DNA of 64,000 nucleotides from Escherichia coli (GTDB taxonomy: Bacteria; Pseudomonadota; Gammaproteobacteria; Enterobacterales; Enterobacteriaceae). The DNA lies in the NCBI RefSeq assembly GCF_003790525.1, contig NZ_CP033636.1; one strand, given 5' to 3'. Below, piece after piece: positions 6,168 through 61,700 of this stretch (within the stretch, counting starts at the first letter, position 1; every line of letters begins with the position of its first letter). The position numbers were made by a program, and so were the translations under genes. The notes under the pieces are model-generated. The model made no database searches and was not told the DNA's origin. It worked only from the letters and a program-made list of their open reading frames with translations.

Positions 6168-6178
6168 AAAGTTACTTT
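6168..6178. repeat. AAAGTWACTTT palindrome copy 1 (intergenic terD-terE)
   Basis: Exact match gAAAAGTTACTTTTc read from sequence. Confidence 0.9.
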
Positions 6179-6182
6179 TCGA

Positions 6183-6761
6183 TCAGGACGCGTTAATGCC
6201 GTACTGAGCACATACAGATGCCAGACCACCAGCATAACCCTGGCCCACTGCGCGGAATTTCCACTCACCATTGTGGCGATACAGCTCGCCGAACAGCATG
6301 GCAGTCTCAGTGGACGCATCTTCGGTCAGATCGTAGCGAGCGACTTCAGTCTGGTTATCGTCATTGACCAGGCGAATAAACGCACCGGATACCTGACCAA
6401 AGCTCTGGCGACGAGCCTGAGCATCATGGATAGTGACAACGAAGATGATCTTGTCAACATCAGACGGGACGGCGTCCAGTTTAATTTTCAGCGATTCATC
6501 ATCACCATCACCTTCACCGGTACGGTTATCACCGGTATGGGTTACGGAACCGTCAGATGACGTCAGGTTGTTATAGAAGATGAAATCTGAATCGCCGCGC
6601 ACTTTGCCGTTTGAGGCCAGCAGGAACGCTGAAGCATCCAGGTCAAAGTCCTGACCGTCTGTTGAACGCGCATCCCAGCCAAGGCCCACCAGGACGTTTT
6701 TCATTGACGGAGCTGCTTTACTCAGGGAGACGTTCCCGCCTTTGGAAAGAGAAACACTCAT
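6183..6761 (-). CDS. terD: TerD tellurite resistance protein
   Basis: 192 aa; [15 protein letters not shown]...[10 protein letters not shown]...[19 protein letters not shown]; AAGAGG SD. Confidence 0.9.
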
Positions 6762-6809
6762 AAAATAACCTCTTCGATTAGTAATTGTTCAGGTTAACAC
6801 TTAAGGGGA

Positions 6810-10411: not shown

Positions 10412-11470
10412 ATGAACAAGAAAATTTGGTTTATGGAAGGTTTGTCCTCCCAGCGAGATATTATTCAGGGGGTAAAATCATTTGCACAAAAAAATAATTT
10501 TGCTATTACCGTATTTGCCTCCCACCGTAACGAAAGACATGAAATTCTTTCCGTTGCCGATTATTCTTTGACTGAACCTGAAGATCCTCAAAAACGTCTT
10601 CAGTTTATTCAGGAAACCATTCAGACCTACGGCATCCACCATATTCATACTGGCCGTAACAGCCAGTGGTTTGAAGAACACCGTTCAGCCATTGAATCGA
10701 CCGGAGCCACCCTTACTACCGGTGCAACAGGCGTCGACTGGTTAACTCTGGCTGACGAAAAAGTTACTTTTGCTCAGTTTATGGAGCAAAACGGGCTCCC
10801 GGTCGTACCGTCCTGGCGGGTGAATACGCTGGCAGAATTAAAGACGCACCTCGCGGCCCCGCCGTTCTCGGACAGCCCGGTATGCGTGAAGCCGGTGACG
10901 GGTATCTATGGCATGGGATTCTGGCGCTTTGATGACAGTGCTTCGCCCATGGCCGTCTTTAATCATCCCGAACATCGTCTGGTCAGTCCGCAACAGTATA
11001 TTGCAGCAGCATCGGCTTCTGAGTCGTTTAAACCCCTTGTTTTGATGCCGTACCTGCCAGGCCCGGAATTTTCCGTCGATATCCTCGCGGATAAGGGCGA
11101 AATACTCGCAGCCGTGGGACGCCGTAAGGAAGGGGCTATCCAGTATCTGGTAAACGAAGGAAGCGCCTGGGAACTGGCTTGTGACTGCGCCCGGGTTATG
11201 AAGGCCGACGGGCTGGTGAATGTTCAGACGCGAAACGATGTGAATGGCAACCCGGTGCTGCTTGAAACCAACATGCGTCCGTCAGGCGGGGTGGGTTATA
11301 CCCTTCACAGCGGGGTGAACCTTCCCGGGTTGTTTGCTGCCTTTAAGCTCGGTCTGATGTCTGAAGATGCGGTGATCCAGAGCGCCAGAAATACCTTTTC
11401 TCCGGTTGCAGTGAGATCCATCACAGATGTCATCGTTTACCCGGAATCACTCTCTAACCATCTGAATTAA
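10412..11470 (+). CDS. ATP-grasp family protein (ter-associated biosynthetic module)
   Basis: 352 aa; ATP-grasp-like fold pattern; gene order matches the ter-linked biosynthetic operon described in comparative genomics. Confidence 0.7.
   Translation: MNKKIWFMEGLSSQRDIIQGVKSFAQKNNFAITVFASHRNERHEILSVADYSLTEPEDPQKRLQFIQETIQTYGIHHIHTGRNSQWFEEHRSAIESTGATLTTGATGVDWLTLADEKVTFAQFMEQNGLPVVPSWRVNTLAELKTHLAAPPFSDSPVCVKPVTGIYGMGFWRFDDSASPMAVFNHPEHRLVSPQQYIAAASASESFKPLVLMPYLPGPEFSVDILADKGEILAAVGRRKEGAIQYLVNEGSAWELACDCARVMKADGLVNVQTRNDVNGNPVLLETNMRPSGGVGYTLHSGVNLPGLFAAFKLGLMSEDAVIQSARNTFSPVAVRSITDVIVYPESLSNHLN
10760..10770. repeat. AAAGTWACTTT palindrome copy 2 (inside ATP-grasp CDS, encodes K-V-T-F)
   Basis: Exact match cgaAAAAGTTACTTTTgc. 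Confidence 0.9.
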
Positions 11471-25228: not shown

Positions 25229-25239
25229 AAAGTAACTTT
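25229..25239. repeat. AAAGTWACTTT palindrome copy 3 (intergenic)
   Basis: Exact match ggtAAAGTAACTTTTatc. Confidence 0.9.
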
Positions 25240-28204: not shown

Positions 28205-29185
28205 TTAATTTTCGGGGCTGACAATGAAAATGCCCAGCTCAGCCCCCGGCACGAGTTCTGTATATTTCAGGCTCAGCTTCCGTTGGTTGGACGGGCCCTG
28301 GCTGTTTTCAGGAGCCCAGTCAGAGAGCGTTTTTAATTGAGGTATGTTGCCTGCTGCGAAAATGGGCAAGGATGCTTTTACTACTGAATAATCAGTCTCA
28401 GCATATTTATTCCCGTTTCGTTCCTGCCCTTCAGGCCTAAATGCAAAAATGTGAGCAATCGGAACAGGGAAAGAGTTAGTTCGACAAAGGCGATAAGATT
28501 CGCCCTGCTTCAGTGGGTGAAATTCAAGACGGTGTAAAGCCTTATCGATATTAGACACGACATTCAAATTGGTAGTTGCTACATTTTTTACTTCTGAGGC
28601 TCTCCTGCGCTCCAACAAACTCACAAGTTGCTCTGCTGTTTTAACTTCCTGGTTTCGGTTTAGCCGCCATGAAAAAGTAACTTTTTTAAGCTGGGACTTG
28701 ATGAAAAGGACATTTCTTGTTGAGTGCATAGCGACAAGGCCCGGGAGCTTCTTGTGCACTTTATCAAAACGGACATTCTTTTTATTATCGATACGCCTCA
28801 TTGCCGCAGCAAAATCATTTTTTGCTTCATTTATAGATGTGATCAAGCTTTCGAGAAGATCTGCTCTTTCTGGGACAATGATAAGACCCGGGTATTTAGT
28901 GGTCACTTTGGTGGAATCATGACTTAATGACTCTATGTCATCCACACAGATGTCAGTAAGTGCCTGAATAATTTCCTCAACCGAAGCATCGTCTTTAACA
29001 CTAACCCTGATGGGTTTAACCTGCTTCAGTCGCTCTTCTGTTCGAGATACGGTGGAGACAGTCATCAGGTTTGCCATCAGCGGGGGGGTGTTCGAAAGAA
29101 AACACTTAAGCGAGTCGATACGTTCCAGAATCTGGTCACGAAAATAGGGCAAATCGTCATAACTCATACGTTTCTCCAGGCTCAT
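28205..29185 (-). CDS. hypothetical protein (326 aa)
   Basis: ORF from track; codirectional tightly packed gene. Confidence 0.45.
   Translation of the reverse strand: MSLEKRMSYDDLPYFRDQILERIDSLKCFLSNTPPLMANLMTVSTVSRTEERLKQVKPIRVSVKDDASVEEIIQALTDICVDDIESLSHDSTKVTTKYPGLIIVPERADLLESLITSINEAKNDFAAAMRRIDNKKNVRFDKVHKKLPGLVAMHSTRNVLFIKSQLKKVTFSWRLNRNQEVKTAEQLVSLLERRRASEVKNVATTNLNVVSNIDKALHRLEFHPLKQGESYRLCRTNSFPVPIAHIFAFRPEGQERNGNKYAETDYSVVKASLPIFAAGNIPQLKTLSDWAPENSQGPSNQRKLSLKYTELVPGAELGIFIVSPEN
28675..28685. repeat. AAAGTWACTTT palindrome copy 4 (inside CDS 28205..29185, encodes K-V-T-F)
   Basis: Exact match tgaAAAAGTAACTTTTTTaag. Confidence 0.9.
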
Positions 29186-32866: not shown

Positions 32867-32877
32867 AAAGTTACTTT
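32867..32877. repeat. AAAGTWACTTT palindrome copy 5 (intergenic P4-P5)
   Basis: Exact match ccAAAGTTACTTTTTTgg. Confidence 0.9.
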
Positions 32878-35897: not shown

Positions 35898-36776
35898 TTA
35901 AAAATCTGTAAGACCTAAATCTTTATTTCTACCACAAACTGTAGAAGATATAAGACGTTTTACTCGCTTTCGAGCACTTCGGCCTGACGTATCTTTCAAG
36001 TACATCGGTAATGACAATGATGAAATTTGATTACTTCGCTTATGATGGCAGACTATATAGCCCTGCCTCCACCCCGAACGCACAAACTCACGGATGCGGT
36101 TAATATATGCCGAAGCTTGAGATTTTGTACTTATCGATTCAGAACACTTTAAGTTCTGTTCGATAGAGTAAAGCTCAGCCGCCATGAATTTCACCTCATA
36201 CAGCTCATCGCCATAACTTATAGTTTTCAACAGCTCTTCCTTTTCCCGAATGAAAAATACTTGCTGCATTCCAAGGATCAGGTCATAGGCCTCTCGAAAG
36301 AGGTCGATAAGCTTATTACGAACATAAATCATAAACTCCTCAAAGTGCTGAAGCCAGAAATAAGCCGCATTACTTATTTGTGAATTGTGAGAACAAACAA
36401 GCCCTTTAGCAAGCTCGACCTCTTCCTCCCGAAAAGTAAAGTTACTTTTCTTAAACCGACTTTGTTCAAAAATGCTTTGATGCATTTCTATCCATACAGA
36501 AACAAAACCGAGGGATTCAAATTCTTCGTTTAACAAATGTAAACTTTCGAAGATTTTCTGAATTTCGATCCCGATGTCATATGACAGTGGACATTCTTTT
36601 ATAGAATAAACATAACCGGGTAGGAAGTGAGATAAATGCTCAGTTCGCAAATATAAACTGAATTTAAGTTCTGTCAGTGGTTGTTTCAAAGATAACTTAG
36701 ATGATTCGCTTATATTTACTGGTTCAACGCCATTTCTAATCAAAATAGCTTTTACCAGGTCCGTAGCTAACTTCAT
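35898..36776 (-). CDS. paralogue-array protein P1 (292 aa, unknown function)
   Basis: First gene of the array; GGAGG SD. Confidence 0.5.
   Translation of the reverse strand: MKLATDLVKAILIRNGVEPVNISESSKLSLKQPLTELKFSLYLRTEHLSHFLPGYVYSIKECPLSYDIGIEIQKIFESLHLLNEEFESLGFVSVWIEMHQSIFEQSRFKKSNFTFREEEVELAKGLVCSHNSQISNAAYFWLQHFEEFMIYVRNKLIDLFREAYDLILGMQQVFFIREKEELLKTISYGDELYEVKFMAAELYSIEQNLKCSESISTKSQASAYINRIREFVRSGWRQGYIVCHHKRSNQISSLSLPMYLKDTSGRSARKRVKRLISSTVCGRNKDLGLTDF
36438..36448. repeat. AAAGTWACTTT palindrome copy 6 (inside P1 CDS, encodes S-N-F register)
   Basis: Exact match gaaaagtAAAGTTACTTTTc. Confidence 0.9.
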
Positions 36777-39285: not shown

Positions 39286-41298
39286 TTAAGAAAGTATTTG
39301 ATGAACTAGCTTACTGACTTCAATAGACAATAAAGAAGTATCATCAACTGTTACGAAAGTGTCCGTTTCAAAACCAATTATTTCATCAGTCTTAATACCA
39401 ACACCAACGATTTCTATTCCATTACATTTAGCCTTTTCCATAACTTCGCCGATAGTAAATTCCGATTTATTCGGATAACCATCAGTTATAAGAAAAATTA
39501 TTTTCCTATCGAATTGGCTGTCAAGTAACAGATCAACAGCTGCCATTAAAGCCGATCCCGTAGGGGTATAATAACCCTTACATCCAAGAGTGAATTTCGA
39601 TAGAGATTCCTCAACGCTTTGATCAAACGTTTTGATAATCTCAAATTCACTTTCCTTGAAGGGAAAGACTATATTGGAGACATGCATTTTTGACAAACTT
39701 TCAGCGGCCATCGATAAAGCAAGATCTGACTTAATGGCATGAATATATCTTTCATCATTAGCCATTGACGCTGAAATATCACGAACTAATACGAGGCCAA
39801 CATGCCCTCTATTTTTAGATTCGCTTTGAGCTCTGAAGACATCACGAACTCCCATTGGTGACAGAATTAATCGATTTCCATCGAAGGTAATTCCACGCTC
39901 ATGAGTTTTGTTTCGGCCACGCATTTTAACCTGCTGTAAAACAGACAAGTCGCTACCGATTGAATGACTCAGAGACAAAGCCTCATTGTAAACATTCAAA
40001 TCGATAAGGAGATCAGGGATATCCCATTCAGAAGCACCGAATTCGGCTTTCACGTCATCGGATACTTTTGATGCAATACCTTCAATCTCTTCAGCCAAAG
40101 CATCGTGATAATCTTCGCTATCCTCATCACTGCCAAGAAAGGCATCCAACAAATCTGCCAGTATCTCCCATTGAGCCGATGAAAAGTTACTTTCATCTTC
40201 AACGTTAGTCGAACTGGCTTCATCTGATTCACTCTCGGAAGGGTTAATCGCATCAGTATCGTCTTCAATAATGTTATCACCTGTGGGATTGCCACCGGTG
40301 GGTTCATTATTTCCCTCGTTATCTTCAGCAAGTTCTGAAGGCTCAGAACATCCCTCTTGAGCAAGATCAGAGTTATCGGAAGTATCTGCCTGACCTTCAC
40401 TATCGTCCTCAGAATCATCCTCACGACTATCAGTCGACTCAAGCGATTTATCTTCTGATTCGGTATCGGTATCGGTATCGGTCTCGGATTCATCATATGC
40501 CTCCTGCTCCTCCTGCTCTGTCTGCTGCTGTTGTTCCCTTGCCTCATCCCGCAGTCTCTCTAAAAGAGCCAGGGTCTTACGAGCAAGGGATTCACAGCCC
40601 TGAGTATTTTCACAACCAAGAGCATCATGAAAAATTTCCTCAACATCAGAAATTACTGGAGAAAGTATCTTTTGGGCATAGTCAAAAAACGGATCGAGTG
40701 TTTCTTTGTGACCTGCCTGCTGAAGGACTTTTACTCGCAATGAGTTAAGCAGATACCACTCAATAAATAGGACAGGATTTTCCGGACGAGAAGATATATC
40801 AGGAGTCATCCTTCCGGCTTTAACCATCAGTGCGTAAGTGGCTGCAAGCCGCCGCTTTGCATCCGGATAATCGTTACCAACCTTCTCTTCCATCTGTACA
40901 TCATCGAACAGATTTATAAGCCCGGTAAGACGTTTTGCCCTGCTATAAGCTTTACGTTTCTCAGCGAGGCTCTCAAACTCTGCATTCATTCCGTCATCGA
41001 AGCGTGTAAACCCTTCAGATGACTTGAGAACACTATTAAAGGCGTCACTGTAAACCTCGCTGTCGGTATAGCGACCATGACCAGCTTCATGACAGGTAAA
41101 ACCTTCAATCAGACTGACAAAGTCATCATCGCTATAATCGCCGTTTGGTAAAACACAAACTTTATTTACAGGATCAAAATACGGTCCTTTGGTATTGTCG
41201 TCTATTACAACTCTTACATCGCCTAAGCCGCTAATGACTTTTGCTATATTCTGTAAACGCTTAATATGGCGCGGTGATGATTTAAGATCTAATTTCAT
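39286..41298 (-). CDS. vWA domain protein with acidic low-complexity region (CobT-like)
   Basis: 670 aa; C-terminal vWA (LVLVRDISASM...FLITDGYPN); central acidic, Asp/Glu/Ser-rich region with TDTDTDTE repeat; AAAGAGG SD. Confidence 0.65.
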   Translation of the reverse strand: MKLDLKSSPRHIKRLQNIAKVISGLGDVRVVIDDNTKGPYFDPVNKVCVLPNGDYSDDDFVSLIEGFTCHEAGHGRYTDSEVYSDAFNSVLKSSEGFTRFDDGMNAEFESLAEKRKAYSRAKRLTGLINLFDDVQMEEKVGNDYPDAKRRLAATYALMVKAGRMTPDISSRPENPVLFIEWYLLNSLRVKVLQQAGHKETLDPFFDYAQKILSPVISDVEEIFHDALGCENTQGCESLARKTLALLERLRDEAREQQQQTEQEEQEAYDESETDTDTDTESEDKSLESTDSREDDSEDDSEGQADTSDNSDLAQEGCSEPSELAEDNEGNNEPTGGNPTGDNIIEDDTDAINPSESESDEASSTNVEDESNFSSAQWEILADLLDAFLGSDEDSEDYHDALAEEIEGIASKVSDDVKAEFGASEWDIPDLLIDLNVYNEALSLSHSIGSDLSVLQQVKMRGRNKTHERGITFDGNRLILSPMGVRDVFRAQSESKNRGHVGLVLVRDISASMANDERYIHAIKSDLALSMAAESLSKMHVSNIVFPFKESEFEIIKTFDQSVEESLSKFTLGCKGYYTPTGSALMAAVDLLLDSQFDRKIIFLITDGYPNKSEFTIGEVMEKAKCNGIEIVGVGIKTDEIIGFETDTFVTVDDTSLLSIEVSKLVHQILS
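40183..40193. repeat. AAAGTWACTTT palindrome copy 7 (inside vWA CDS, S-N-F register)
   Basis: Exact match tgAAAAGTTACTTTcat. Confidence 0.9.
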
Positions 41299-46727: not shown

Positions 46728-48512
46728 TTATTCTGTATAAACTGGAGAAATTCGAATATTAGCTGCTTCTTTTATCTTTTCTTCACTGCATTCTCTTAAA
46801 AAGAAAGAAGGGTCACCATACCACATTACAAAAAGTTGCTTTTCTGCACGCGTAAATCCAACATAAAGCAAACGTCTTTCTTCTTCTATTGCCTCCTCCC
46901 CAACTGATCTTTTACTTGGTATCTGATCCGCATTACAACTCATTATTATTACTTTATTCCACTCAAGACCCTTTGAACCATGCAAGGTTGATAGGACTAC
47001 TTTCTCTGGGCTGTATTCCTCGTCCTTCTTCCTAGGGCCTAATGACATTGCAGCAGCACGATTGATCATATTCATCCAACCAGTCTTTTCTGCCCACTGT
47101 TTACAAGTGTCTAAAGCAATTTTTGTTAAGGTTGCTGTACCTTTATTACTCCTCATCTTGATTGACGACGATTCCATCCATTTCGTAAGGTTGGCGAAAC
47201 GTTTTGCTATCTCAACTTTATCAGTACTTTCCTGGGTAAAGCGCACGAAGTTTGAATGTAATGTTTTTGTTTCGAGAGAACTGTCCTCCGGGATGGCAAG
47301 GTCGCCAAAAGTAACTTTTCTTCCTCTCATACTCAATGCCACATCATCCAAAACTGATTCCTGTTCTCCAAACAATGCCAATACTCTCTTCATTAAGCGA
47401 GGATCATTTGATTGTCGGAAAAAGGCCATAAGGCTTAACACATCGCTTGTTTCTTTTTCATCCCAGAATGATTTACCTCCGTAACGAATTACTGGCTGTT
47501 CGATCAAACTTTCTAGCTCATCCAAGTGAGCATTATTGCGGCTTAGAATTGCCCATCCATGTGGATCCTGATTTATAAGGCTTAAAATACCCTGTATCTG
47601 TTCCTCCATATCTACATATGAACGAAAAGTGACCTTTCCTCCTCCCTTTTTTGCCGAGCGTAACTCTTTGGCATAACGGTAAACATTCTTTCCTATCAGT
47701 GCTCCGGCCACCTCTAAAATTTCAGGTTCACACCTAAAGCATGTGTTTAAGTAAAATATGTTAGGTCTGAAGTGTTTTTCAAACTGTTGAAATATTTTGA
47801 CTCCTCCTGAGGATCTGAAGGAGTAGATGGCCTGATCATCGTCTCCAACTATACTCGTATAGACTCCAGCTCTTGTATGCAATGCTATCCATGAGAATTG
47901 TATAGAGTCAGTATCCTGAACTTCGTCTACTATCAAATGTGTCAAATCTAACGTGCGCATTTTTCCCGAATGCATTTGACCGACAACAAATTTTGAAAGA
48001 GCATTGAGGTCCGCCACATGGTCTTTCTGGCATAACGCCTGATAGGTATTAAATAAATGGATCTGTTGTCTGTTATGCCGAACTGAAATCACATCCGTAT
48101 CCATTTCTCTGCCGATAGCATCAATAACGAATTCAGCTTCAGCAAACTTCATCGTTACACCGGATTCTTTCAAAGCCCGGTGAATGACAGATCTCTGTGC
48201 TGGCCCTATCAACATCTTTCCCGGCCAGCGAATCATGTCCAGTTGCTTCTTAACGAGTCCGTGAAAAGTATCCACCAGCACCCGGTCAAGATCCTTCTTG
48301 CTCAATCGCTTTTGTAACTTTGCTGCAAGTGCGTTTGTTGCAGCGCGAGTAAAGGTCACCATCCCGATTCTTGCATATGGATACTTTTTGAGAATCGATA
48401 TAACCGCTTCTATCATGGTGAATGATTTGCCTGATCCAGGCGCTGCTATCACCATATTGTTTGCGCTAGCATTCTCGATAACAGGTCTTTGCTCTTCTGT
48501 TGGCTTACCCAT
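46728..48512 (-). CDS. UvrD/Rep-type superfamily-1 DNA helicase
   Basis: 594 aa; N-terminal Walker A AAPGSGKS; UvrD-like layout; GAGG SD. Confidence 0.7.
   Translation of the reverse strand: MGKPTEEQRPVIENASANNMVIAAPGSGKSFTMIEAVISILKKYPYARIGMVTFTRAATNALAAKLQKRLSKKDLDRVLVDTFHGLVKKQLDMIRWPGKMLIGPAQRSVIHRALKESGVTMKFAEAEFVIDAIGREMDTDVISVRHNRQQIHLFNTYQALCQKDHVADLNALSKFVVGQMHSGKMRTLDLTHLIVDEVQDTDSIQFSWIALHTRAGVYTSIVGDDDQAIYSFRSSGGVKIFQQFEKHFRPNIFYLNTCFRCEPEILEVAGALIGKNVYRYAKELRSAKKGGGKVTFRSYVDMEEQIQGILSLINQDPHGWAILSRNNAHLDELESLIEQPVIRYGGKSFWDEKETSDVLSLMAFFRQSNDPRLMKRVLALFGEQESVLDDVALSMRGRKVTFGDLAIPEDSSLETKTLHSNFVRFTQESTDKVEIAKRFANLTKWMESSSIKMRSNKGTATLTKIALDTCKQWAEKTGWMNMINRAAAMSLGPRKKDEEYSPEKVVLSTLHGSKGLEWNKVIIMSCNADQIPSKRSVGEEAIEEERRLLYVGFTRAEKQLFVMWYGDPSFFLRECSEEKIKEAANIRISPVYTE
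47308..47318. repeat. AAAGTWACTTT palindrome copy 9 (inside helicase CDS, encodes K-V-T-F)
   Basis: Exact match ccAAAAGTAACTTTTct. Confidence 0.9.
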
Positions 48513-48691
48513 TTCAACCTCATTACTTCGTTTTAATAATTATACATTTTTATAAAAGCGCTTTTCTTGTGTACTGCTGGTTCTACTGGAAATCACTTTT
48601 TTTCCTTTTTTATGCAATCAGGTTGTTTGTGAAACGCGTGACTATGGAATAATGGTTCCATCTCCAAAAGACATTACAAAAAGGGCTTTAA

Positions 48692-49564: not shown

Positions 49565-49565
49565 T

Positions 49566-49592
49566 TAAAAAAGGGGCCTAACGGCCCCTTCT
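49566..49592. terminator. Bidirectional terminator between the lipoprotein gene and the traN-like gene
   Basis: AAAAAAA-GGGGCC-TAAC-GGCCCC-TTCTT; T-run on both strands. Confidence 0.65.
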
Positions 49593-52799: not shown

Positions 52800-53861
52800 T
52801 CAAACGCCTGGAACGTAGCGAACACAACAGTCATTGTAACGCCACAACATATAGACATAATTATCGTTGCCTATTTTTTTGCGCCCACCTTTAAGGGTTG
52901 ACCAGTCGTGTACCGAATCACCAAGACGATGACAGCAATCCGGTCCCTTCGCCTCAGGAGTAGGGAAAAGCATTGAAAGCCGATACTGGGAACGTGGTGT
53001 AAAGTATTCCCACGTTTTCTCACACATTGCGTCTGCTCCCATCGTTCGCATCAGCATGCCTTGGCGATGTAGTTTTGTCAGAAGACGCTGGGTAATCAGT
53101 GAACTCGTCCTTACAGCGTCATCATTTGCGTAAATGTGGCCGGTTAATGGGTAAAGGTTGCCATCGCATCCGGCACAAAAGTATGCAGCGAGATTATCCT
53201 TTCCTGCTGTTACTGCTACACAGTCAGCAGCGCACACCATTGAGGCAATTGGGTTTGCAAAAACTACTGCCTCGGGATTCAGGACGAGTGTAAGCAGATC
53301 ACTTTCCCACATAGGGTCCACTTCGCTTATATAGGTCAGGCTGGCATCTATATAGGGTTCAGCAGTGCACTCGCCAATAATCAGTAATTTGAGCATTGTC
53401 ATGATTGGGAACTCCCAAAGATGAACATCGTAAAATCCGGCTTCAGTTGCTGTCATTGGCTGATTAGTGTTGCTTTTACCAATATCAAACTGCGATTTTT
53501 GAAGCATCGTGCCTTCAAGAAAGGGGCTGCACCAGGGGCTCTTTACAACTTCTACAATCTTCACCGGCTGAAAGAAGCTCAATTGCCAACCTATTTCCGG
53601 TACGCCGTTCTGATCTGTGCAGTAGCAACCCGGACGTGAAGGTGCAGCGCCTTCTGGAGCAGCCCCTATGCCCATTATCCTCATGGGAAAAATGCAGCTC
53701 CAACAGATATTCTTAATCAAGCCCTGCCACACTCCAGCTGACTGACACATAGCCCCAGGGACTCCAGCATCTGCTGCCATAGCCATACCAGGTATAGAAA
53801 GCGAAAGCATAACTGCTACAATGAACTCTAAAAGTAACTTTTTGAATTTTTTCACCATCAT
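52800..53861 (-). CDS. trhU: TraU-like conjugative pilus assembly protein (TrhU-like)
   Basis: Signal peptide MMVKKFKKLLLEFIVAVMLSLSIPGMAMA; cysteine pattern CWSCIFPM, CYC typical of TraU as I recall it; start taken at 53861, track ORF extends to 53960. Confidence 0.6.
   Translation of the reverse strand: MMVKKFKKLLLEFIVAVMLSLSIPGMAMAADAGVPGAMCQSAGVWQGLIKNICWSCIFPMRIMGIGAAPEGAAPSRPGCYCTDQNGVPEIGWQLSFFQPVKIVEVVKSPWCSPFLEGTMLQKSQFDIGKSNTNQPMTATEAGFYDVHLWEFPIMTMLKLLIIGECTAEPYIDASLTYISEVDPMWESDLLTLVLNPEAVVFANPIASMVCAADCVAVTAGKDNLAAYFCAGCDGNLYPLTGHIYANDDAVRTSSLITQRLLTKLHRQGMLMRTMGADAMCEKTWEYFTPRSQYRLSMLFPTPEAKGPDCCHRLGDSVHDWSTLKGGRKKIGNDNYVYMLWRYNDCCVRYVPGV
53831..53841. repeat. AAAGTWACTTT palindrome copy 10 (inside traU-like CDS)
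   Basis: Exact match ctAAAAGTAACTTTTTga. Confidence 0.9.
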
Positions 53862-55511: not shown

Positions 55512-56010
55512 ATGTTTTCCCAATTACTGAATTCAGCTTTACTGTTCCCCAAAAACGGGAATCCCATGAGTGATCGGTTTGCCCAATTAGGAAAACTTCG
55601 CCTTCAGGAATTATCAATTCTTTTTCAATCAAAATGGACGGAATACTGTATTTCTTTGAAATACGACGTGCATTAGCTTCAAAAAATTTGTCCCCGTTAT
55701 AAACCCCATCCATTGTTACTTTGAGTTTGTCACCGCCCACACCGGCAACAATTTTTATGACTCGTTCATTTTCTGGGATAAAACGAACCGATTTCGGCAT
55801 GTTGAAAGCTATGAGTTCACCAGTTTTAATAGTTTTATCCGAATGATCAATCATATAAAAATCAGCAGGCAGGCACCCATTCAATAAACCGTATCCAAAT
55901 GTATAACGGGTGAAAAAGACACACATAACGAGAATCAGCAATAAAATATTAATGGGGACATACCAATCCAGTATAAGCAGCCCTCTCTTTTTAGGTATGT
56001 AGTCGCTCAT
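55498..56010 (-). CDS. trhP: S26-family signal-peptidase-like protein (TraF(RP4)/TrhP-like pilin-processing peptidase)
   Basis: 170 aa; N-terminal membrane anchor; C-terminal signal peptidase I-like motif GQTDHSWDSRFWG. Confidence 0.55.
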   Translation of the reverse strand: MSDYIPKKRGLLILDWYVPINILLLILVMCVFFTRYTFGYGLLNGCLPADFYMIDHSDKTIKTGELIAFNMPKSVRFIPENERVIKIVAGVGGDKLKVTMDGVYNGDKFFEANARRISKKYSIPSILIEKELIIPEGEVFLIGQTDHSWDSRFWGTVKLNSVIGKTYAIF

Positions 56011-56194: not shown

Positions 56195-56205
56195 AAAGTT
56201 ACTTT
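56195..56205. repeat. AAAGTWACTTT palindrome copy 11 (intergenic)
   Basis: Exact match gcAAAGTTACTTTcc. Confidence 0.9.
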
Positions 56206-56287: not shown

Positions 56288-59200
56288 TTACTCACTGCTT
56301 GGTATTGATACAGTGTTTTCAGACTTACTTGCCTCTTCAGCCGGTCCGAAAACTGTCACGTGCTGCGTTGCAAAGTCTCCACTATCATCATAAGCAATTA
56401 CTTTTATGTCCTGCTTACCACGGTTAAGGTTTTTAGAAAGTGTAGCCGTACTACCGAAAACGTTCCTTAATTCGCCGTTGATGAACCATTCATATCTAAC
56501 CATTTTTCCATCAGTATCATCACATTTATTGGTAAAGCTCCAGCTTAGGTTGGTTTCCGTGTAGCTCAATGTACAATTAGGCACTGCGTTTTTAACGACA
56601 TCAAACTCAACAGATGCTGAACCTCTCTGTCCAAGTTTACTAACAACATCAATTGTGATCTCGTATTTCTTTTCTTTTAAACCCGAAATCAGTTGAGCCC
56701 AATAATTTTTGCCGCTGGGTATTACCTCACCGTTCACCTTGTATGTGACCGTATCTATCGAGTCCGCCGAATGAGATAGCTTGATGTTTGACCTTAAGGT
56801 TACATCGAGTGGAGCTCTCATATATTTGTTAGAGAACTTGGGTGTCATCTCAACGTTCATTGGCGTTTGTTCATCGACAACAAAGGTATTTTCGATACGC
56901 TGTTCATTGTTGCGGTTATCTTTGAAAACAACCATCAATGTATATTTGCCAGGATTTTCAATTGTAAATTCTTTGGTGTCACCTTCATCTTTAGTGATTA
57001 CCAGATTCTCTTTGTCGTAAATCCATTCTCGGGAATAAGTAACACCAGGATAGTCTCCATCCTTAATACCGCTCAACGCAACGCGTAGGGTGGTCGGTGC
57101 CATGTCGTATTTAAGTTTGGAGCTTATTTTCATTTCGGGGAATTTATAAACCCACGATTTGACAGAAACTCTACGGGTAGAAACCGTATTCACCTTATTG
57201 TCCGCTAACCATGCACTGTATTCAAAAGCAGCATATCCCTGTTTATCCAACATTTGCTCAGTAAGGGTAACAGACAGTGTAGAGCCTTTAAATGTCTGGC
57301 CATCCGGTGTTTTCCATTCTTCAACTACGTTATTACCATTCTGGTACTTACTGTTAGGGTTCGTGAACTTACCTTCCAAAGTAACTTTTTGACCAACCTC
57401 TACCTTAGAAACCCCCGTTACCGAGACAGAAAGGCGCTTGGGTTTTGCGGCTGCCAACCGAGCAGACGTTTCCTTCCATGAAGACTCCTCTGCCAGTTCA
57501 TCGGAATCAAGGTAACGCATCCGGGCATAAATCGTAGACGGTAGGGTATCAGCTGAAGCCACAGTGTAAGTTGTATCTCCCTGCACCCAGTTGACTTTAT
57601 CCTCTGACCAGAGAACCTCAGCGGTGCCTGCTGGTATAGGCTCATCGTTATCAAGCAGGGTTACAGGTACATCTGAGCCCTGAAGAATGTCTGTCACATC
57701 TATACTGAGCTTAGGCTGCTTGTAGGTAACTACCGTTAAGGCATCTGTGTAGGAAACCTTAGATGTGAATTTATTGGTCATTTTTGCCCTATAAAGCCAC
57801 TTTCCTACTTCTGTCTTTTTGATACTTACACTTCTCTTTCCGGTCATGTCGGAAAGCATATTCCAGGTTTGACCATTATCAGAGGACTGCTGCCATTCGG
57901 TGGGGGCAAGTGCGTCAGAGTTAGCAGTACTGGCAGATTTGAAGCTTACCAGAGTACTAAGTGGGATCCTTCCGATAATAAGGCTTTTCGACAGGTTACC
58001 CTCCAGTTCCTCACCTTTATAGATTCGAATGCCTACAGCACTGGTCTCACGTTTCATTTCAAAATCAGAGAATGGCGATCTGACCTTAGCCACACCAACC
58101 AGACGCATATTACCCAGATCCATATTTTCAATTTTAATCTTGGTTTCGACAATGCCCGCATCATTGACCGGCAATGCTTCAGTCAGCGCAGTTCTTTCGT
58201 ATGTAGTTTTATAACGGCCTGTTTCTGGATCTTTGCCGTATACACTTTTTTGCGAGTATATCGTGACGTCCCATTCTCCCATTGTTTTACGGTCAAATGC
58301 ACTTTTACGTGTGGAGTTGTTATAACGCCCCACTGTTACCTTTAAGGGCACTTCAAGAGATGTGGCTGTTTTTCTGTCATCCACTTCCATCGATGCTCGA
58401 ATATTGAAATCAGGCACCGTATATACGTTGAGTGTGTCTGTAGTTCTTAATTCTGGATCCTTTGAGTATTCTACAGCTATGTCAAAGACGTTCTTTGTCC
58501 ACAATGGTGCAGCAGCAACCTTAACCCTTTGTACAAAGGTCGTTGCATCGTTGTTTGAGGAACGATTTTTAAATGACGTTTTGACAGCCTCAGAGCCGTT
58601 TTGAGAGACGATCATCGTAACGTCAGCTGGTACCACCTTCGCTAATATTCGAGCGGCCTCCCCCCCGGTCGTATAAGCCAGAGCAGTGTTCGGATTGATG
58701 CCAGCTATGACTTTATTCTTTTTGTAAGAGATGATCGGGTTGTATGGTAATTGTGTGGTCAGAGTACGGCGATTCCTTGCGGATACCGCTTTAGAGCCCT
58801 TCCCGTTAATCATATAGACTTGATAGTCGAGCAGATTCTCACCTGTTTTATTAAAGAATCCAGTTAGACCCGGGGTACGTCCTTTAAAATAGAACTCCAA
58901 CCCATCAGGGACATTGTTCCACTGAGGGTAGCATGCTGTAACATCTGATTTTTCCCCATACCAGGCGAGGTAAGCATTCGCATTTTCCTCTGTGGTAAAC
59001 AGAGTGCATTTATCACCAGCTGTTTGACTAAGCAGGTCCGTATACTGACGTACACGCGAGTAAAGAGTTACGTTTTTTTCCAGATTCTTGAGAGTGAATC
59101 CAGTAGGTTGATAAGTGAAAACGGTACTGAAATTAACGTTTTTTCCATAAAGGTTTTCAGCCACCACAGTAATCTCGTGATCCGAATTAACTGCTAAATC

Positions 59201-60592
59201 GTCTCCAACCGGCAGGTAGTAAATACCTCTATAATTTGTAGGTGTTAACGAAACTACTTTGTTGTCTATTGTTACTGATTTTATGTCAGCAACCCCAGCC
59301 TGCCCCTGGAAAGCTGCAACGATAATCTCGTTCAGGAAGTATACGGGTGCTCGTTTAGTTAATACCTGCCCATCTTTGAGAACCATAAGCGTTGGGTTAT
59401 CAGACAGCATCAGTTTGCTTTCAGGCTCAGTGTACGTAGAAGAGTTTTTGCTCGTATTTTCTACTGTAAAAGTCGCTGCGTAGGACCCGTTTATAAGATC
59501 CGTTAAGTCGAAGATATAGAGGTACTCATCACCGACTTTTTGAGGTCCACTTACCGGCTGTAAAGTTCTACGTAAAGGGGTTGCCCAGGACTGTTTGAAA
59601 TCAATCTCAGTGCCATCATCTAAAGTCACTTTAGTCGTCGGTTTAAACACGCCATCCGGAGTCATAGTGAGCGACATAGCTGTTGGGAGCCACCATTCAC
59701 CTTCTGTTTCTTGCTGGGGTACCTTAACGGCCACAGCAACGGTTTTGGCTCCGGTATAGATGTCCTGGCCACCTACTTTGATTGTTTTAGCCTCATCGGT
59801 AAAATTCCAAAGTGTATGGTCTACTACAGGAGGCCGATAATCCCAGTTAACAACAAGCTTTTTGGATTCAGGAGGTGCGAAATAATTATTCTTAGAGTTT
59901 GCTGTAATTGTGATATCACGTGAACCCAAAAGTTCATCTGTATCACTGGCCTTAATGCTTCCAACTTCAATGGTACAGGAAGTTCCGCCAATAGGAACTT
60001 CACAGGCGGAGCCTGAACCTATTGAGATGTATTGAATATAATTGCGGGGCTCAACAGAAACAGCGATATCTTTGATCGCTTCATCCTTTAAATACGATTT
60101 GAAAGAAAAGCCGTCATAGACTAATCCGTTCAGGGATGATTTAAGACCGGTGATAGTAGGTTTTACCGGTGCCACACTTTTGATTGAATATTCACCTTTT
60201 ACTATTTCAACTTTTTTCCGTTCAGAACCAGAGAAGTAAGAAATCTTGTAAGGTAGTTTTAAATCACCGGTGGTGTTGGGAACGCCTGAAAGAGTGAAAC
60301 CGTTAGAAGTAAATCCCAAGGTATTGGGTAACCACTCAAAAAAACAAACGAGGTTATCAACAGAGGAAGTCGCTCGATCATCAACCGTTACATTACAGGC
60401 TGTGCCTGCACCTGAGGCAGTGATAGTGTTAGAATTAACGTATGCAACAAAGTCGCCCGGCCCCGGGTCAAAGGATACGGCTGGCAAATCAGCCTGTAGC
60501 TTTCCTGAAATCATAATCGCTTCGGCGTAGACCGCTTTAATCGGAGCAATTAAAGAAAACAACAGGGCTAAACCTAAACCTGATTTTCTCAT
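56288..60592 (-). CDS. large exported protein (1434 aa), beta-rich, possible surface or adhesin-like repeats
   Basis: Signal peptide MRKSGLGLALLFSLIAPIKAVYA; Thr/Ser/Val/Asn-rich composition; no nucleotide-binding motif seen; function unknown. Confidence 0.5.
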   Translation of the reverse strand: MRKSGLGLALLFSLIAPIKAVYAEAIMISGKLQADLPAVSFDPGPGDFVAYVNSNTITASGAGTACNVTVDDRATSSVDNLVCFFEWLPNTLGFTSNGFTLSGVPNTTGDLKLPYKISYFSGSERKKVEIVKGEYSIKSVAPVKPTITGLKSSLNGLVYDGFSFKSYLKDEAIKDIAVSVEPRNYIQYISIGSGSACEVPIGGTSCTIEVGSIKASDTDELLGSRDITITANSKNNYFAPPESKKLVVNWDYRPPVVDHTLWNFTDEAKTIKVGGQDIYTGAKTVAVAVKVPQQETEGEWWLPTAMSLTMTPDGVFKPTTKVTLDDGTEIDFKQSWATPLRRTLQPVSGPQKVGDEYLYIFDLTDLINGSYAATFTVENTSKNSSTYTEPESKLMLSDNPTLMVLKDGQVLTKRAPVYFLNEIIVAAFQGQAGVADIKSVTIDNKVVSLTPTNYRGIYYLPVGDDLAVNSDHEITVVAENLYGKNVNFSTVFTYQPTGFTLKNLEKNVTLYSRVRQYTDLLSQTAGDKCTLFTTEENANAYLAWYGEKSDVTACYPQWNNVPDGLEFYFKGRTPGLTGFFNKTGENLLDYQVYMINGKGSKAVSARNRRTLTTQLPYNPIISYKKNKVIAGINPNTALAYTTGGEAARILAKVVPADVTMIVSQNGSEAVKTSFKNRSSNNDATTFVQRVKVAAAPLWTKNVFDIAVEYSKDPELRTTDTLNVYTVPDFNIRASMEVDDRKTATSLEVPLKVTVGRYNNSTRKSAFDRKTMGEWDVTIYSQKSVYGKDPETGRYKTTYERTALTEALPVNDAGIVETKIKIENMDLGNMRLVGVAKVRSPFSDFEMKRETSAVGIRIYKGEELEGNLSKSLIIGRIPLSTLVSFKSASTANSDALAPTEWQQSSDNGQTWNMLSDMTGKRSVSIKKTEVGKWLYRAKMTNKFTSKVSYTDALTVVTYKQPKLSIDVTDILQGSDVPVTLLDNDEPIPAGTAEVLWSEDKVNWVQGDTTYTVASADTLPSTIYARMRYLDSDELAEESSWKETSARLAAAKPKRLSVSVTGVSKVEVGQKVTLEGKFTNPNSKYQNGNNVVEEWKTPDGQTFKGSTLSVTLTEQMLDKQGYAAFEYSAWLADNKVNTVSTRRVSVKSWVYKFPEMKISSKLKYDMAPTTLRVALSGIKDGDYPGVTYSREWIYDKENLVITKDEGDTKEFTIENPGKYTLMVVFKDNRNNEQRIENTFVVDEQTPMNVEMTPKFSNKYMRAPLDVTLRSNIKLSHSADSIDTVTYKVNGEVIPSGKNYWAQLISGLKEKKYEITIDVVSKLGQRGSASVEFDVVKNAVPNCTLSYTETNLSWSFTNKCDDTDGKMVRYEWFINGELRNVFGSTATLSKNLNRGKQDIKVIAYDDSGDFATQHVTVFGPAEEASKSENTVSIPSSE
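57378..57388. repeat. AAAGTWACTTT palindrome copy 12 (inside 1434-aa CDS, encodes K-V-T-L)
   Basis: Exact match ccAAAGTAACTTTTTga. Confidence 0.9.
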
Positions 60593-60711
60593 GACGAATA
60601 CCTGTTTTTCTGAGCAAAATTAAACTCACTTTACGATGAAAAACAGAAATATCCGTTCGTATAACATTTAAAAAAACCTGTATTTTTCCATGTATTCCGT
60701 ATGTTAATACG

Positions 60712-61293
60712 CTATTTTGAATTCTTGGCTTCAGATAAGCGAAGCGCGGTAATTATAGACTCGGAGCTTACCCAAGGCGTTTTTTGAGCAAGATATCCAA
60801 GTATGTAGAGGCCAATTTTAACGCAGTCCATTTGTGAGACGGGGACCATGTGCATGAAGGGTTTTAAGCCGTCTTTATCGACTGGAACTATCCCTGCTGA
60901 TAACAACAAACCGCCCCTCTCGTTTGGGGTAACGCTTATATTTTTGTATACGACGTGGCCATGATGTGAGGTTTTCCTCTTATCAATTTTTAAAGTATGC
61001 ATGATTCTAAGAAATACAGATGCCATCTGCATAACTTCATTCGTCGACAATTTTAGAAGTACAGAACGGTTTGAGCCCCAGTCATAATCTTTTTTGGCGT
61101 TCCTCGGAGCGACGTGCAATGTAAGATAATAATTATCAATCTCATTTGAAAAAGGTGAAGGTTTTGATGAGCTAACATCTTCATTGTTCATCTCAATGAC
61201 AAGTGCTGCATCCTGACCAAAAGCTTTTACATTATGGTTTTTAAGAGAGAAGTCTGAAGTTGCCATATAAAAAGTCACTTTTGATAAAACCAC
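60712..61293 (-). CDS. hypothetical protein (193 aa)
   Basis: GTG start at 61293 preceded by AGGTGG; a near-variant motif AAAGTCACTTT lies in its first codons (61270-61280). Confidence 0.45.
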   Translation of the reverse strand: MVLSKVTFYMATSDFSLKNHNVKAFGQDAALVIEMNNEDVSSSKPSPFSNEIDNYYLTLHVAPRNAKKDYDWGSNRSVLLKLSTNEVMQMASVFLRIMHTLKIDKRKTSHHGHVVYKNISVTPNERGGLLLSAGIVPVDKDGLKPFMHMVPVSQMDCVKIGLYILGYLAQKTPWVSSESIITALRLSEAKNSK

Positions 61294-61700
61294 ATACCAC
61301 CTAATGATTCATCATCGGCAAGATGCTTGAAATTTGAGAGTGTATATCCTGTTTTGGTTTCAGAAATCACCATGCTGTAAGATGCCGTATGTACAAGGCG
61401 AGAATTGTTTAGATCAAGATCATCACAAAAACCAGGGCTTTTGACGGGGTCAGCCTTTTCAACAAAAGTTACTTTTGAAGCGATGCCGTTGATCACGATT
61501 TTCTCGTTATCAGCAATTTTAATGTTTAAAGAAGGCGAGCTTTTATCACATGGCAGGAAGAGTGATGTCTTTTTAAATGTGTTTCCAGTGAAGTCCAAAA
61601 GGTCAGGTTTAACCGGAACATTGTTTAGGATTTTATAAACTCCAGCAAATGCACATATCACAACAAAACCAGATAAAACATATCTAATCTTAGACTTCAT
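61275..61700 (-). CDS. hypothetical exported or membrane-anchored protein (141 aa)
   Basis: N-terminal hydrophobic segment YVLSGFVVICAFAGV; GAGAGGA SD. Confidence 0.45.
   Translation of the reverse strand: MKSKIRYVLSGFVVICAFAGVYKILNNVPVKPDLLDFTGNTFKKTSLFLPCDKSSPSLNIKIADNEKIVINGIASKVTFVEKADPVKSPGFCDDLDLNNSRLVHTASYSMVISETKTGYTLSNFKHLADDESLGGMWFYQK
61465..61475. repeat. AAAGTWACTTT palindrome copy 13 (inside CDS 61275..61700, encodes K-V-T-F)
   Basis: Exact match caAAAGTTACTTTTga. Confidence 0.9.

Follow-up and report, generated by a model that had tools for sequence, protein, structure and literature searches.

The window, the whole 64-kb stretch of DNA that was analysed, is IncHI2 plasmid backbone, and this backbone is A+T-rich. 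A pattern scan of the window finds 13 exact copies of the palindrome AAAGTWACTTT, of which five are intergenic. The initial annotation had listed the same number, and its positions hold for twelve of them; the remaining copy begins at 28674 and not at 28675. Two copies lie in the ter region. The first (AAAGTTACTTT, 6168..6178) separates terD (6186-6761, minus strand) from a terE-like gene (5540-6115, minus strand), and the second (10760..10770) is within an ATP-grasp gene (10412-11470, plus strand), where it is read in frame 0 as K-V-T-F. Both are kept in Klebsiella, in the pLVPK-like ter cluster and in the ATP-grasp orthologue, respectively, while the corresponding Pantoea sequences are AAAGTTAATGT and AACAAAGCAGAGTTC. 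Non-IncHI ter clusters lack these copies. Further along, the copy at 25229..25239 is intergenic, downstream of hha and ~165 bp upstream of a hypothetical gene (23987-25069, minus strand), and that at 28674..28684 is within a Tus-like gene (28205-29167, minus strand) in frame 0. The latter occupies the same codon in IncHI1, and the Tus gene of an HI3-like plasmid carries its copy at a different position. Three more copies are kept in IncHI1: one between the paralogous genes 31770-32726 and 32898-33836 (both minus strand) at 32867..32877, and two in frame 1, at 36438..36448 in a hypothetical gene (35898-36776, minus strand; K-S-N-F) and at 40183..40193 in a VWA-domain gene (39286-41298, minus strand; E-S-N-F).

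Six copies remain. Downstream of trhI and upstream of gene 45461-46333 (minus strand), an intergenic copy at 46629-46639 is followed by the partial copy AAAGTTACTC at 46644-46653, as previously described, and a weakly predicted promoter-like site lies on the minus strand just upstream of the pair. The full copy is kept in IncHI1, and the HI3-like plasmid has one in the equivalent intergenic gap. Within trhI itself (46728-48512, minus strand), the frame 0 copy at 47308..47318 is kept in the HI3-like plasmid and, with its central base flipped, in IncHI1. The copy at 53831..53841, at the 5′ end of trhU (52800-53855, minus strand), is kept in both and reads K-K-L-L-L in frame 2, so the window contains a third codon register in addition to the two that had been recognised earlier. 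An intergenic copy at 56195..56205 separates rsp (56288-60592, minus strand), which encodes a 1434-aa Ig-like protein, from trhF (55498-56010, minus strand), and another at 57378..57388 is within rsp in frame 0; the first is kept in IncHI1 with a flipped central base and the second in IncHI1 and the HI3-like plasmid. Finally, the copy at 61465..61475 is in frame 0 of gene 61275-61700 (minus strand) and is also kept in IncHI1 with its central base flipped. Sequence matches to the centre-variant AAAGTCACTTT, a possible weaker site, occur at 59622..59632 and 61271..61281; the initial annotation had placed the latter at 61270 and did not list the former. Its other near-variant, AAAGTGACCTTT, is present at 47626-47637.

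The number of copies far exceeds what base composition predicts. Dinucleotide shuffles of the window contain a mean of 0.06 copies and a maximum of 1, with none of 100 shuffles reaching 13, and Markov models of order 1, 3 and 5 predict 0.07, 0.12 and 0.41 copies. The excess extends to the whole replicon. The complete IncHI2 plasmid pXD35001 carries 42 copies. Its 178.5-kb backbone has 41 of them, against 0.2-1.1 predicted by Markov models of order 1 to 5, and its 65.6 kb of accessory DNA have 1. No other 8- to 11-mer occurs as often in this replicon as AAAGTWACTTT. Across the plasmid the 11-bp core does not vary, and sequence information ends at position ±6. One-mismatch variants number only 24 against the 42 exact copies, and 7 of the 24 deviate at the centre alone. 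The central W is split between A (23 copies) and T (19), indicating a site without polarity. The bases flanking the core are A/T in 63% of copies on each side, and only six of the 13 window copies have both flanking bases of AAAAGTWACTTTT, so that the extension to this sequence, which the initial annotation gave for most copies, is a weak one.

Conservation among IncHI lineages leads to the same conclusion. Between HI2 and HI1, whose aligned DNA is 69.5% identical overall, all 11 alignable sites are kept, compared to 5.5% of all 11-mers (p=1.3e-14), and the central W is the sole base that flips. The motif is enriched in IncHI1 plasmids as well, reaches 73 copies in 191 kb in an IncHI1B (HI3-like) Klebsiella plasmid whose proteins are 22-79% identical to those of HI2, and occurs in loci of the Yersinia and Leclercia types as well. 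A short perfect palindrome occurs in many near-identical backbone copies (42 in HI2, 73 in the HI3-like plasmid) across lineages in which backbone proteins have diverged to 22-35% identity. It is absent from a Photobacterium plasmid with IncHI-like synteny. We conclude that AAAGTWACTTT, with its weak extension to AAAAGTWACTTTT, is a cis-element under selection that occupies 40-70 conserved sites along the backbones of IncHI multidrug-resistance plasmids. The motif did not turn up in searchable publications.

The placement of the sites relative to genes is also informative. On the pXD35001 backbone, 22 of 41 copies are intergenic although only 18% of the DNA is (p=4e-7), a five-fold enrichment, and most of these are 80-230 bp upstream of start codons. 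The intragenic copies are distributed 11/3/3 across the three reading frames. The replicon statistics, the conservation across lineages, and the occurrence of copies in three frames and between genes bear out the earlier view of a signal at the level of DNA and not of a shared peptide.

Which protein reads this signal? The binder is likely encoded beyond the window, as an orphan ParB-like protein. Our best candidate (candidate A; WP_001272970.1, 394 aa) is encoded in the leading region, at 189284-190468 of pXD35001 (L004:30578-31762, minus strand). It matches Pfam HTH_ParB (E=1.5e-5), and a profile of its family aligns with ParB, Spo0J and Noc (E=3e-12 to 1e-7) in two regions, a ParB N-terminal (ParB/Srx-like) domain and a ParB-type HTH domain. 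In its AlphaFold model, most of residues 20-240 have a pLDDT of 85-93, which falls to 70-80 in places. Foldseek matches this model best to the KorB-KorA-DNA complex of RK2 (8qa9; target TM-score 0.65, E=3.4e-8), with further matches to ParB and Noc. The S-x-x-H-[LVI]-R of the HTH recognition helix is kept across orthologues that are just 35% identical overall.

The link of candidate A to the motif is positional. In six of six lineages, its gene has 1-6 copies within 870 bp upstream: at -227 and -101 in HI2, -210 and -109 in Yersinia, -333, -226 and -108 in the HI1-like lineage, -257 in the Leclercia-type lineage, six within 870 bp in HI3, and five in K. grimontii. A copy at -101 to -130 recurs in five of the six, and this is the only gene found with multiple upstream copies in all lineages. 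The loci of remoter family members contain 2 copies in 4.2 kb, 3 in 5.2 kb and 5 in 21 kb, and no covarying motif was found at two loci of distant homologues (L029, L030). No sigma-70-like promoter is predicted around the sites upstream of the candidate A gene. Many other backbone genes likewise have a conserved upstream copy, and the link is confounded by shared ancestry, since all motif-bearing loci are IncHI-like. Candidate A is also one of three ParB-like paralogues on IncHI, none of which is adjoined by a parA gene. The paralogue between a dam-type and a DUF4942 gene is a second candidate binder, and the data fit either protein alike. In this family, ParB box II reads G-[AH]-C-R-x-R in place of GERRxR, keeping two of three arginines and losing the glutamate, and box III reads G-N-x-G in place of ENxxR. 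These deviations make a CTP-dependent clamp doubtful. In addition, the half-site centres of AAAGTWACTTT are 6 bp apart, tighter than the 16 bp of parS.

Two other binders proposed by the initial annotation find no support. The IncHI1 stretch syntenic with the window (locus L007) lacks the ter cluster yet is motif-rich, and TerW is therefore unlikely to be the general binder. For the ParR-like protein at 62546..63184, the site would be the lone copy upstream of parM, which is not kept in IncHI1.

Our preferred reading, to which we assign a probability of roughly one half, is that AAAGTWACTTT is a binding or loading site for a symmetric dimer of a plasmid orphan ParB/KorB-like protein, with candidate A the best choice. 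In a model patterned on KorB of RK2, a ParB-type HTH would recognise the palindrome, and the protein would sit at one site per 2.5-4.5 kb, mainly in gaps upstream of genes. From there it could control, directly or after spreading or sliding away from its site, the backbone operons for maintenance, for transfer (Tra1 and Tra2) and in the leading region, and it may autoregulate through the 1-6 copies upstream of its own gene. We infer binding by candidate A, as well as any CTP use and the output, which may be repression, H-NS anti-silencing or plasmid organisation.

The analogy to dispersed KorB operators drawn at the outset appears probable given the replicon statistics, the IncHI conservation and the KorB/ParB-like genes with an upstream motif. 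In both systems the site is a perfect palindrome of odd length whose centre is degenerate (TTTAGC-S-GCTAAA in IncP-1 and AAAAGT-W-ACTTTT in IncHI), at a density of about one copy per 4-5 kb, with 12 copies in RK2 (PMC10954446). KorB exerts long-range silencing from its OB sites, which are likewise located at promoters, far upstream, or inside genes (PMC11790492). In both cases the reader, known or putative, is a ParB-family protein composed of an N-terminal domain, HTH, disordered acidic linker and C-terminal domain, and copies lie upstream of its own gene. However, KorB is only ~18% identical to the IncHI protein in the Foldseek alignment, and the IncHI protein is outside any partition operon, has no IncC/ParA partner and no identified KorA-like partner, carries G[AH]CRxR in place of GERRxR in box II, belongs to a set of three paralogues, and would serve 42-74 sites in place of 12. 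KorB with its OB sites and the ParB of IncC with its dispersed parS are the nearest precedents for our preferred reading. Most likely, the IncHI motif serves a plasmid-encoded KorB/ParB-like DNA-binding protein that had gone unnoticed and that would control or organise the plasmid as a whole.

VirB acting at virS on Shigella pINV and BisD of ICEclc are ParB-family orphans that load at sites and act on distant promoters (PMC10770331, PMC12409273), and like the IncHI proteins they are borne by mobile elements without a partition role. They differ in having kept functional CTP-binding motifs, few sites and defined regulons. IncHI plasmids are described as strongly silenced by H-NS/Hha (PMC7366339), a trait shared with pINV, and anti-silencing is hence a plausible output. 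A more tentative idea is that IncHI plasmids have an unrecognised plasmid-wide "chromatin" system, made up of 40-75 conserved loading sites and a diverged, possibly CTP-independent orphan ParB-like family of three paralogues, one of them in a methyltransferase module. If so, it would determine the transcriptional or epigenetic state of the entire 200-300 kb backbone, and it may contribute to the thermoregulation of transfer that depends on H-NS/Hha. As the ParB-like genes are in the leading region, action upon entry into a new host would be possible.

The reader may alternatively be some other sequence-specific protein, either hidden in the IncHI backbone or a conserved enterobacterial host protein, which we regard as possible but somewhat unlikely. 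The identity of the motif across lineages with 22-35% identical backbone proteins fits a very conserved, possibly host, reader, and the motif-free Photobacterium plasmid is compatible with specificity for either the host or the plasmid. The GTnAC core resembles the reported YbaB/EbfC-type preference. A plasmid-encoded DNA-binding protein could hide among the 20 hypothetical window proteins without family matches, and most IncHI backbone genes have no recognisable domain. Yet accessory DNA that has long resided in these hosts contains a single copy in 66 kb, the ParB-like gene was the only one found to have multiple upstream copies in every lineage, and we know of no enterobacterial regulator with an AAAGTWACTTT site.

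A centromere-like or organisational role of the copies, in segregation, cohesion or compaction of a 200-300 kb plasmid and not in transcription control, is improbable in our estimation. The precedent is IncC/IncA, whose ParB binds 12-14 dispersed palindromes by EMSA and uses these parS sites for partition (PMC10954446). These plasmids are MOBH relatives, both groups being MOBH/MPF_F megaplasmids of Enterobacteria, and the palindrome is again scattered over the backbone, mainly intergenic with some copies in ORFs, and also near a "parB-like regulator" gene. The product of this gene, itself uncharacterised, is a homologue of the IncHI paralogues (30-34% identical). The conserved intragenic copies and the spacing of HI2 backbone copies, which is more even than random (CV 0.68 vs 0.97, p=0.004), also favour an organisational role, but the HI3-like plasmid has no even spacing (CV 0.96). 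IncHI already possesses two partition modules. One of them, Par1, has a P1-type ParB (Pfam PF08775) and, next to parA, a tandem array of 249 bp. No ParA gene adjoins the orphan ParB-like genes. One IncC parS overlaps the parA promoter, whereas the Par1 parA promoter region has no AAAGTWACTTT copy and none overlaps it. The IncC site itself is unrelated in sequence, being an inverted repeat of 22 bp (core TTTCACATGTGAAA) that is bound by the ParB of parAB053, a canonical GERRWRA protein with a KorB domain. This core and any homologue of that protein are absent from pXD35001, which excludes IncC/IncA-type parS; conversely, AAAGTWACTTT is absent from the IncC stretch examined, and IncHI has 3-5 times more copies. 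Finally, regulation accounts better for the intergenic bias and for the placement upstream of genes. The dimeric chromosome organisers and sites Noc-NBS, ParB-parS, MatP-matS and SlmA-SBS also involve short palindromes in coding and non-coding DNA that are conserved at the DNA level, but they organise or position chromosomes and show no bias to gaps upstream of genes. Such chromosomal sites have a far lower density.

Still less probable is that the motif is a target of plasmid DNA modification, an epigenetic mark perhaps directed by the ParB-like paralogue of the methyltransferase module. IncHI2 has at least four methyltransferase-like genes, and the order methyltransferase, ParB-like, DUF4942 is kept in HI2 and at three further loci (L028, L031, L032). 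ParB-dependent DNA-modifying enzymes are reported in phages (PMC13229309). Nevertheless, modification alone leaves the over-representation, positional conservation and intergenic bias unexplained, and a contiguous palindrome of 11-13 bp is unusually long for a methyltransferase target. A non-functional by-product of composition, codon usage, a shared peptide or a small dispersed repeat, as the A+T-rich backbone and the K-V-T-F/L encoded by 11 of 17 intragenic copies might suggest, is effectively refuted by the Markov expectations of about 1 copy or fewer up to order 5, the three frames with half of the copies intergenic, flanks without conserved sequence, 11/11 conservation against a 5.5% background, and the lack of these copies in non-IncHI ter clusters.

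A Tus-Ter replication fork barrier was also considered and rejected: Ter is asymmetric (~23 bp, core GTTGTAAC) and read by a monomer in a manner that depends on orientation, while AAAGTWACTTT is symmetric without orientation skew. Tus orthologues are just 25% identical between motif-sharing lineages, and a separate Ter-like sequence, GTTGTAACTAA, is present at plasmid position 172043.

The window corresponds to positions 8707-72706 of the complete IncHI2 plasmid pXD35001 (NZ_CP089134.1, 244 kb), from which it differs at two bases, and a 20-kb stretch of it (30000-50000) is present at 99% identity or higher in more than 1000 sequenced plasmids. First in gene order is hipBA; next come the tellurite-resistance (ter) cluster, hha, an integrase gene and a Tus homologue, then a long run of uncharacterised minus-strand genes, followed by the Tra2 region (trhI, trhN, trhU, trhW, trhF, rsp, htdA) and parM. 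Searching the window for the palindrome AAAGTWACTTT (motif-bearing duplex sequence, AAAAGTAACTTTT) recovered exactly the 13 copies listed by the initial annotation, with one coordinate displaced by a single base (28674), as well as the near-variants it had named. Its estimate of strong over-representation was also confirmed, as dinucleotide-preserving shuffles of the window averaged 0.06 copies with a maximum of one, and window-trained Markov models of order 1, 3 and 5 expect 0.07, 0.12 and 0.41 copies. The complete pXD35001 sequence, which we built from six pieces, contains 42 copies. Forty-one lie in the 178.5 kb backbone, or one per 4.35 kb, where order-1 to order-5 models expect 0.2-1.1, and one lies in the 65.6 kb of accessory DNA (IS26, integron and transposon sequence). 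This sole accessory copy, at pXD35001 90232 (outside the window), is inside a permease gene between IS26 copies and may be a chance occurrence or a captured backbone fragment. Among the 8-, 9-, 10- and 11-mers of the whole plasmid, counted on both strands, the motif ranks first, above A-runs and IS26 ends. A second frequent palindrome, GGATTTAAATCC, proved to be internal to the IS26 copies.

A symmetrised alignment of the 42 copies reveals ten invariant positions, a centre that is either A or T, a weak A/T preference at +/-6, and no information further out. The motif is thus not part of a larger repeat or mobile element, given that its flanks are uninformative. The proposal that most copies extend to a 13-mer, with one A/T base on each side, was half right: both flanking bases are present in 6 of the 13 window copies, and each flank is A/T in 63% of copies plasmid-wide. 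One-mismatch variants number only 24 on the plasmid, seven of which differ at the centre alone, against a chance expectation of about 30 variants per exact copy. Twenty-three copies have A at the centre and 19 have T, irrespective of region, indicating that the site lacks polarity. Such sharp and symmetric specificity points to binding by a dimeric sequence-specific protein, and is a poor fit for a nucleoid protein of loose specificity.

The copies are also placed non-randomly relative to genes. Twenty-two of the 41 backbone copies are fully intergenic, compared with 18% of the backbone as judged from an incomplete gene table (p=4e-7). These intergenic copies are mostly 80-230 bp upstream of a start codon, and about half of the leading-region gaps between genes hold one. 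Coding backbone DNA nevertheless contains 19 copies where fewer than one is expected, and several of the intragenic copies fall where two genes meet, no more than 40 bp into htdO, trhU, trhH and a thermonuclease gene. The occurrence of copies in both coding and intergenic DNA had been taken as evidence for a DNA-level signal, and this interpretation stands. The accompanying description of two codon registers does not, since the copies inside genes use every reading frame (11, 3 and 3), so that a shared peptide does not account for them. A fixed promoter element was not supported, as the aligned flanks show no -10/-35 pair at constant spacing and promoter scans were uninformative. At one locus, a sigma-70-like promoter recognised by consensus match only (window 46691-46720, minus strand; TGGGCA, 18-nt spacer, TATAGT) is just upstream of the copy at 46629 and a partial neighbour. 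Both would then lie ~30-55 nt 3′ of the predicted start, in a roadblock-like position.

Conservation of the motif far exceeds that of the surrounding DNA. Across 43 kb of orthologous sequence, an IncHI1 stretch syntenic with the window is 69.5% identical to it, and all 11 alignable copies are kept there at the ten specified positions, against a background of 5.5% for all 11-mers and 5.0% for A+T-rich 11-mers (binomial p=1.3e-14). The centre base is flipped in three of the 11. In an IncHI1B Klebsiella plasmid (hereafter HI3-like), whose proteins are only 22-79% identical to those of IncHI2 (35% for the VWA protein and 25% for Tus), the 191 kb backbone contains 73 copies. A further 50-kb HI3-like stretch has none in its accessory part and a single copy in a backbone gene beside hha. 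The HI3-like copies in trhI, trhU and rsp are orthologous to window copies, and others have been relocated, as in the Tus gene, where the copy falls at a different codon. Yersinia- and Leclercia-type relatives carry one copy per 3-4 kb, and a Vibrio pAQU-like plasmid and a Photobacterium plasmid (IncHI-like gene order) carry none. The sequence TGTTCAACA in the Photobacterium plasmid turned out to be a coding tandem repeat. The ter cluster is sparser than the rest of the backbone, with two copies in 23 kb (window 6168 and 10760). Both are kept in Klebsiella IncHI1B-type plasmids and are missing from the orthologous positions of a Pantoea megaplasmid ter cluster, which suggests that they arose once the cluster had joined an IncHI backbone.

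The lead to a candidate reader came from the HI3-like plasmid, where one gene is preceded by six copies clustered within 750 bp, none of them more than 870 bp upstream. The product of its IncHI2 orthologue, paralogue A (WP_001272970.1, 394 aa), is encoded in the leading region outside the window (pXD35001 189284-190468; 30578-31762 of piece L004), and its gene is preceded by copies at -227 and -101 from the ATG, one of the two closest copy pairs on the plasmid. Its orthologues have upstream copies in all five further lineages: at -333, -226 and -108 in the HI1-like, -210 and -109 in the Yersinia and -257 in the Leclercia-type lineage, at six positions in the HI3-like one, and at five in K. grimontii. 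Paralogue A matches the Pfam ParB-type HTH (E=1.5e-5), and a profile built from the wider family hits ParB, Spo0J and Noc over both the N-terminal domain and the HTH, with E down to 3e-12. In its AlphaFold model, most of residues 20-240 are predicted with confidence (pLDDT per block mainly 85-93, with two dips to 70-80), the linker is disordered, acidic and rich in proline, and the C-terminal domain is helical. Among solved structures, this model best matches the RK2 KorB-KorA-DNA complex (E=3.4e-8, target TM-score 0.65), with ParB and Noc next.

IncHI2 encodes two further ParB-like paralogues, B (WP_000114859.1) and C (WP_001065779.1), also outside the window, with the two genes at pXD35001 238233-239396 (L005:29527-30690) and 242607-243662 (L005:33901-34956), and mutual identity among the three is 22-26%. 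The paralogue B gene has a Dam-type methyltransferase gene on one side and a DUF4942 gene on the other, and this order is kept on three unrelated contigs (L028, L031 and L032). Because the paralogue B gene also tends to have an upstream copy, the data do not separate A from B; we favour A for its better conserved recognition helix, which reads S-x-x-H-[LVI]-R in all orthologues. Contigs encoding remoter ParB-like relatives hold the motif as well, with two copies in 4.2 kb (one at -43), three in 5.2 kb (one at -130) and five in 21 kb. A scan of species-representative genomes gave one locus only. Covariation of motif and protein was not found among distant homologues, where one contig (L029) has three copies of the 9-mer core only and another (L030) has 20-bp iterons instead. 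The latter, a metagenomic plasmid contig, carries seven tandem iterons (ATAAGAAAGTAAACGACCAA) at 9195-9315, ~700 bp upstream of a distant ParB-like homologue, and they contain AAAGTAA, which is similar to one half of the IncHI palindrome. In the ParB-like family of the three paralogues, the ParB nucleotide-binding motifs survive only in part (G[AH]CRxR versus GERRxR, and GNxG versus ENxxR), making a CTP-driven sliding clamp uncertain.

Position, fold and analogy favour a reading in which the palindrome serves as an operator or loading site of an orphan ParB-like protein; this is the best supported of the readings, and we assign it a probability of about 0.5. The role of this protein would parallel that of KorB on RK2, which binds dispersed palindromic OB sites beside promoters or at distances of up to more than 1 kb, and from them silences replication, maintenance and transfer genes (PMC11790492). 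RK2 has 12 such sites of 13 bp each (PMC10954446). The output in IncHI could be repression, relief of H-NS/Hha silencing, activation, or organisation or segregation; among related proteins, VirB relieves H-NS silencing (PMC10770331) and BisD acts in activation (PMC12409273). A phylogenetically closer precedent than RK2 KorB is found in IncC/IncA plasmids, where a different palindrome is scattered in 12-14 copies, of which most are intergenic and four lie in ORFs, and EMSA shows that the KorB-domain ParB of the plasmid binds them (PMC10954446). The comparison with a KorB-like operator set had been made in the initial annotation, and is strengthened by ParB-like genes with upstream copies and by the KorB-like fold. 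The assignment to this family is one that we infer, since IncHI2 has no homologue of the IncC KorB-domain ParB and what it shares with IncC is an uncharacterised 'parB-like regulator' (WP_000268394.1), which is 30-34% identical to the three IncHI paralogues. The Vibrio penaeicida plasmid pTUMSAT-OK1 has three intergenic copies (10050, 22508 and 31687) of an 18-bp palindrome, ACTTTCACATGTGAAAGT. The core of this palindrome is the IncA/C-type parS (TTTCACATGTGAAA), which the IncC KorB-domain ParB binds by EMSA (PMC10954446), so dispersed parS appears to extend to pAQU-like plasmids.

A different reader, whether a plasmid or a host protein, is an unlikely but serious alternative, argued for mainly by the exact maintenance of the motif over very deep backbone divergence, which would call for a highly conserved reader. 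Several specific candidates were rejected. The Par1 ParB is P1-type and has its own tandem array (249 bp x 10.6) beside parA, whose promoter lacks the motif. This array (pXD35001 78679-81268; 19973-22562 of piece L002), ~6 kb past the window end, holds TGGCGA, which resembles P1 box B, and is probably the Par1 centromere. In other lineages, different short tandem units lie at the same place, CTGGCGATTAAGGGG x 31 in IncHI1 and TCAGAGCCGTCAGAG x 17 in HI3-like. Two binders put forward by the initial annotation did not hold up: the ParR-like protein downstream of parM (62546..63184), because the single copy upstream of parM (64431, just past the window end) is not kept in IncHI1, and TerW as a general reader, because the ter cluster is absent from the syntenic IncHI1 stretch. 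The Tus homologue was set aside in view of a symmetric site without orientation skew, a separate Ter-like site, and only 25% identity between motif-sharing lineages. That Ter-like sequence, AAGTTGTAACTAATA, occurs once, between genes of the Tra1 region and outside the window (pXD35001 172043), and lacks the G at the locking-C6 position; the plasmid's Tus homologue (window 28205-29167) could plausibly target it.

A centromere-like or organisational role is improbable. Spacing along the HI2 backbone is more even than chance would give (CV 0.68, p=0.004), but the HI3-like plasmid shows no significant evenness. That the motif is a modification target is more improbable still, and a compositional artefact is excluded.

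Plasmids of the IncHI1, IncHI2 and IncHI1B types rank among the main vehicles of multidrug resistance in Salmonella Typhi, E. coli, Enterobacter and Klebsiella. To our knowledge, the regulation described for IncHI so far is limited to H-NS/Hha and TrhR/TrhY/HtdA. A family-wide cis-element that is the commonest word of its replicon gives experiments a direct way into the global control of such plasmids. About two thirds of the R27 ORFs are reported to lack similarity to any known ORF (PMC4853401). Literature searches with the motif strings and on IncHI regulators and comparative genomics returned no mention of the motif, and the original R27 and R478 genome papers may hold an earlier note. An R27 transcriptome paper, an IncHI comparative-genomics preprint and an R27 deletion-scan paper mention neither the motif nor the ParB-like genes. 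ParB-family proteins with dispersed palindromic sites on conjugative plasmids are already known; new here would be a diverged ParB-type system in a plasmid family of clinical importance, whose sites outnumber those of IncP or IncC several-fold. Should the ParB-like protein prove to be the reader, KorB would be joined by a second family of ParB-type regulators acting plasmid-wide, and the diverged nucleotide-binding motif of this protein would provide a natural test of the need for CTP in clamp-type spreading.

Within the uncharacterised part of the window, an NCBIfam search of 20 hypothetical proteins found no family, and Pfam tags for the central genes gave nothing useful. Five tandem paralogous genes at 31770-36776 encode proteins of ~300 aa (292-318 aa) without a recognisable domain; they are kept in IncHI1 and in the Photobacterium plasmid and are missing in the HI3-like plasmid. 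Motif sites could also mark IncHI-derived DNA, such as the motif-bearing remnants in Klebsiella virulence plasmids. One of these, pKPZhen (NZ_CP053863.1), a non-conjugative pLVPK-like plasmid of IncFIB/IncHI1B type, has no homologue of the ParB-like paralogues with more than 60% length coverage. Narrowing the reader by gene content shared with pKPZhen was uninformative, because its 12 copies all sit in IncHI-derived remnants. Three of these copies (71255, 71451 and 71788) fall in a 530-bp ORF-less stretch adjoining a truncated DUF1173 gene.
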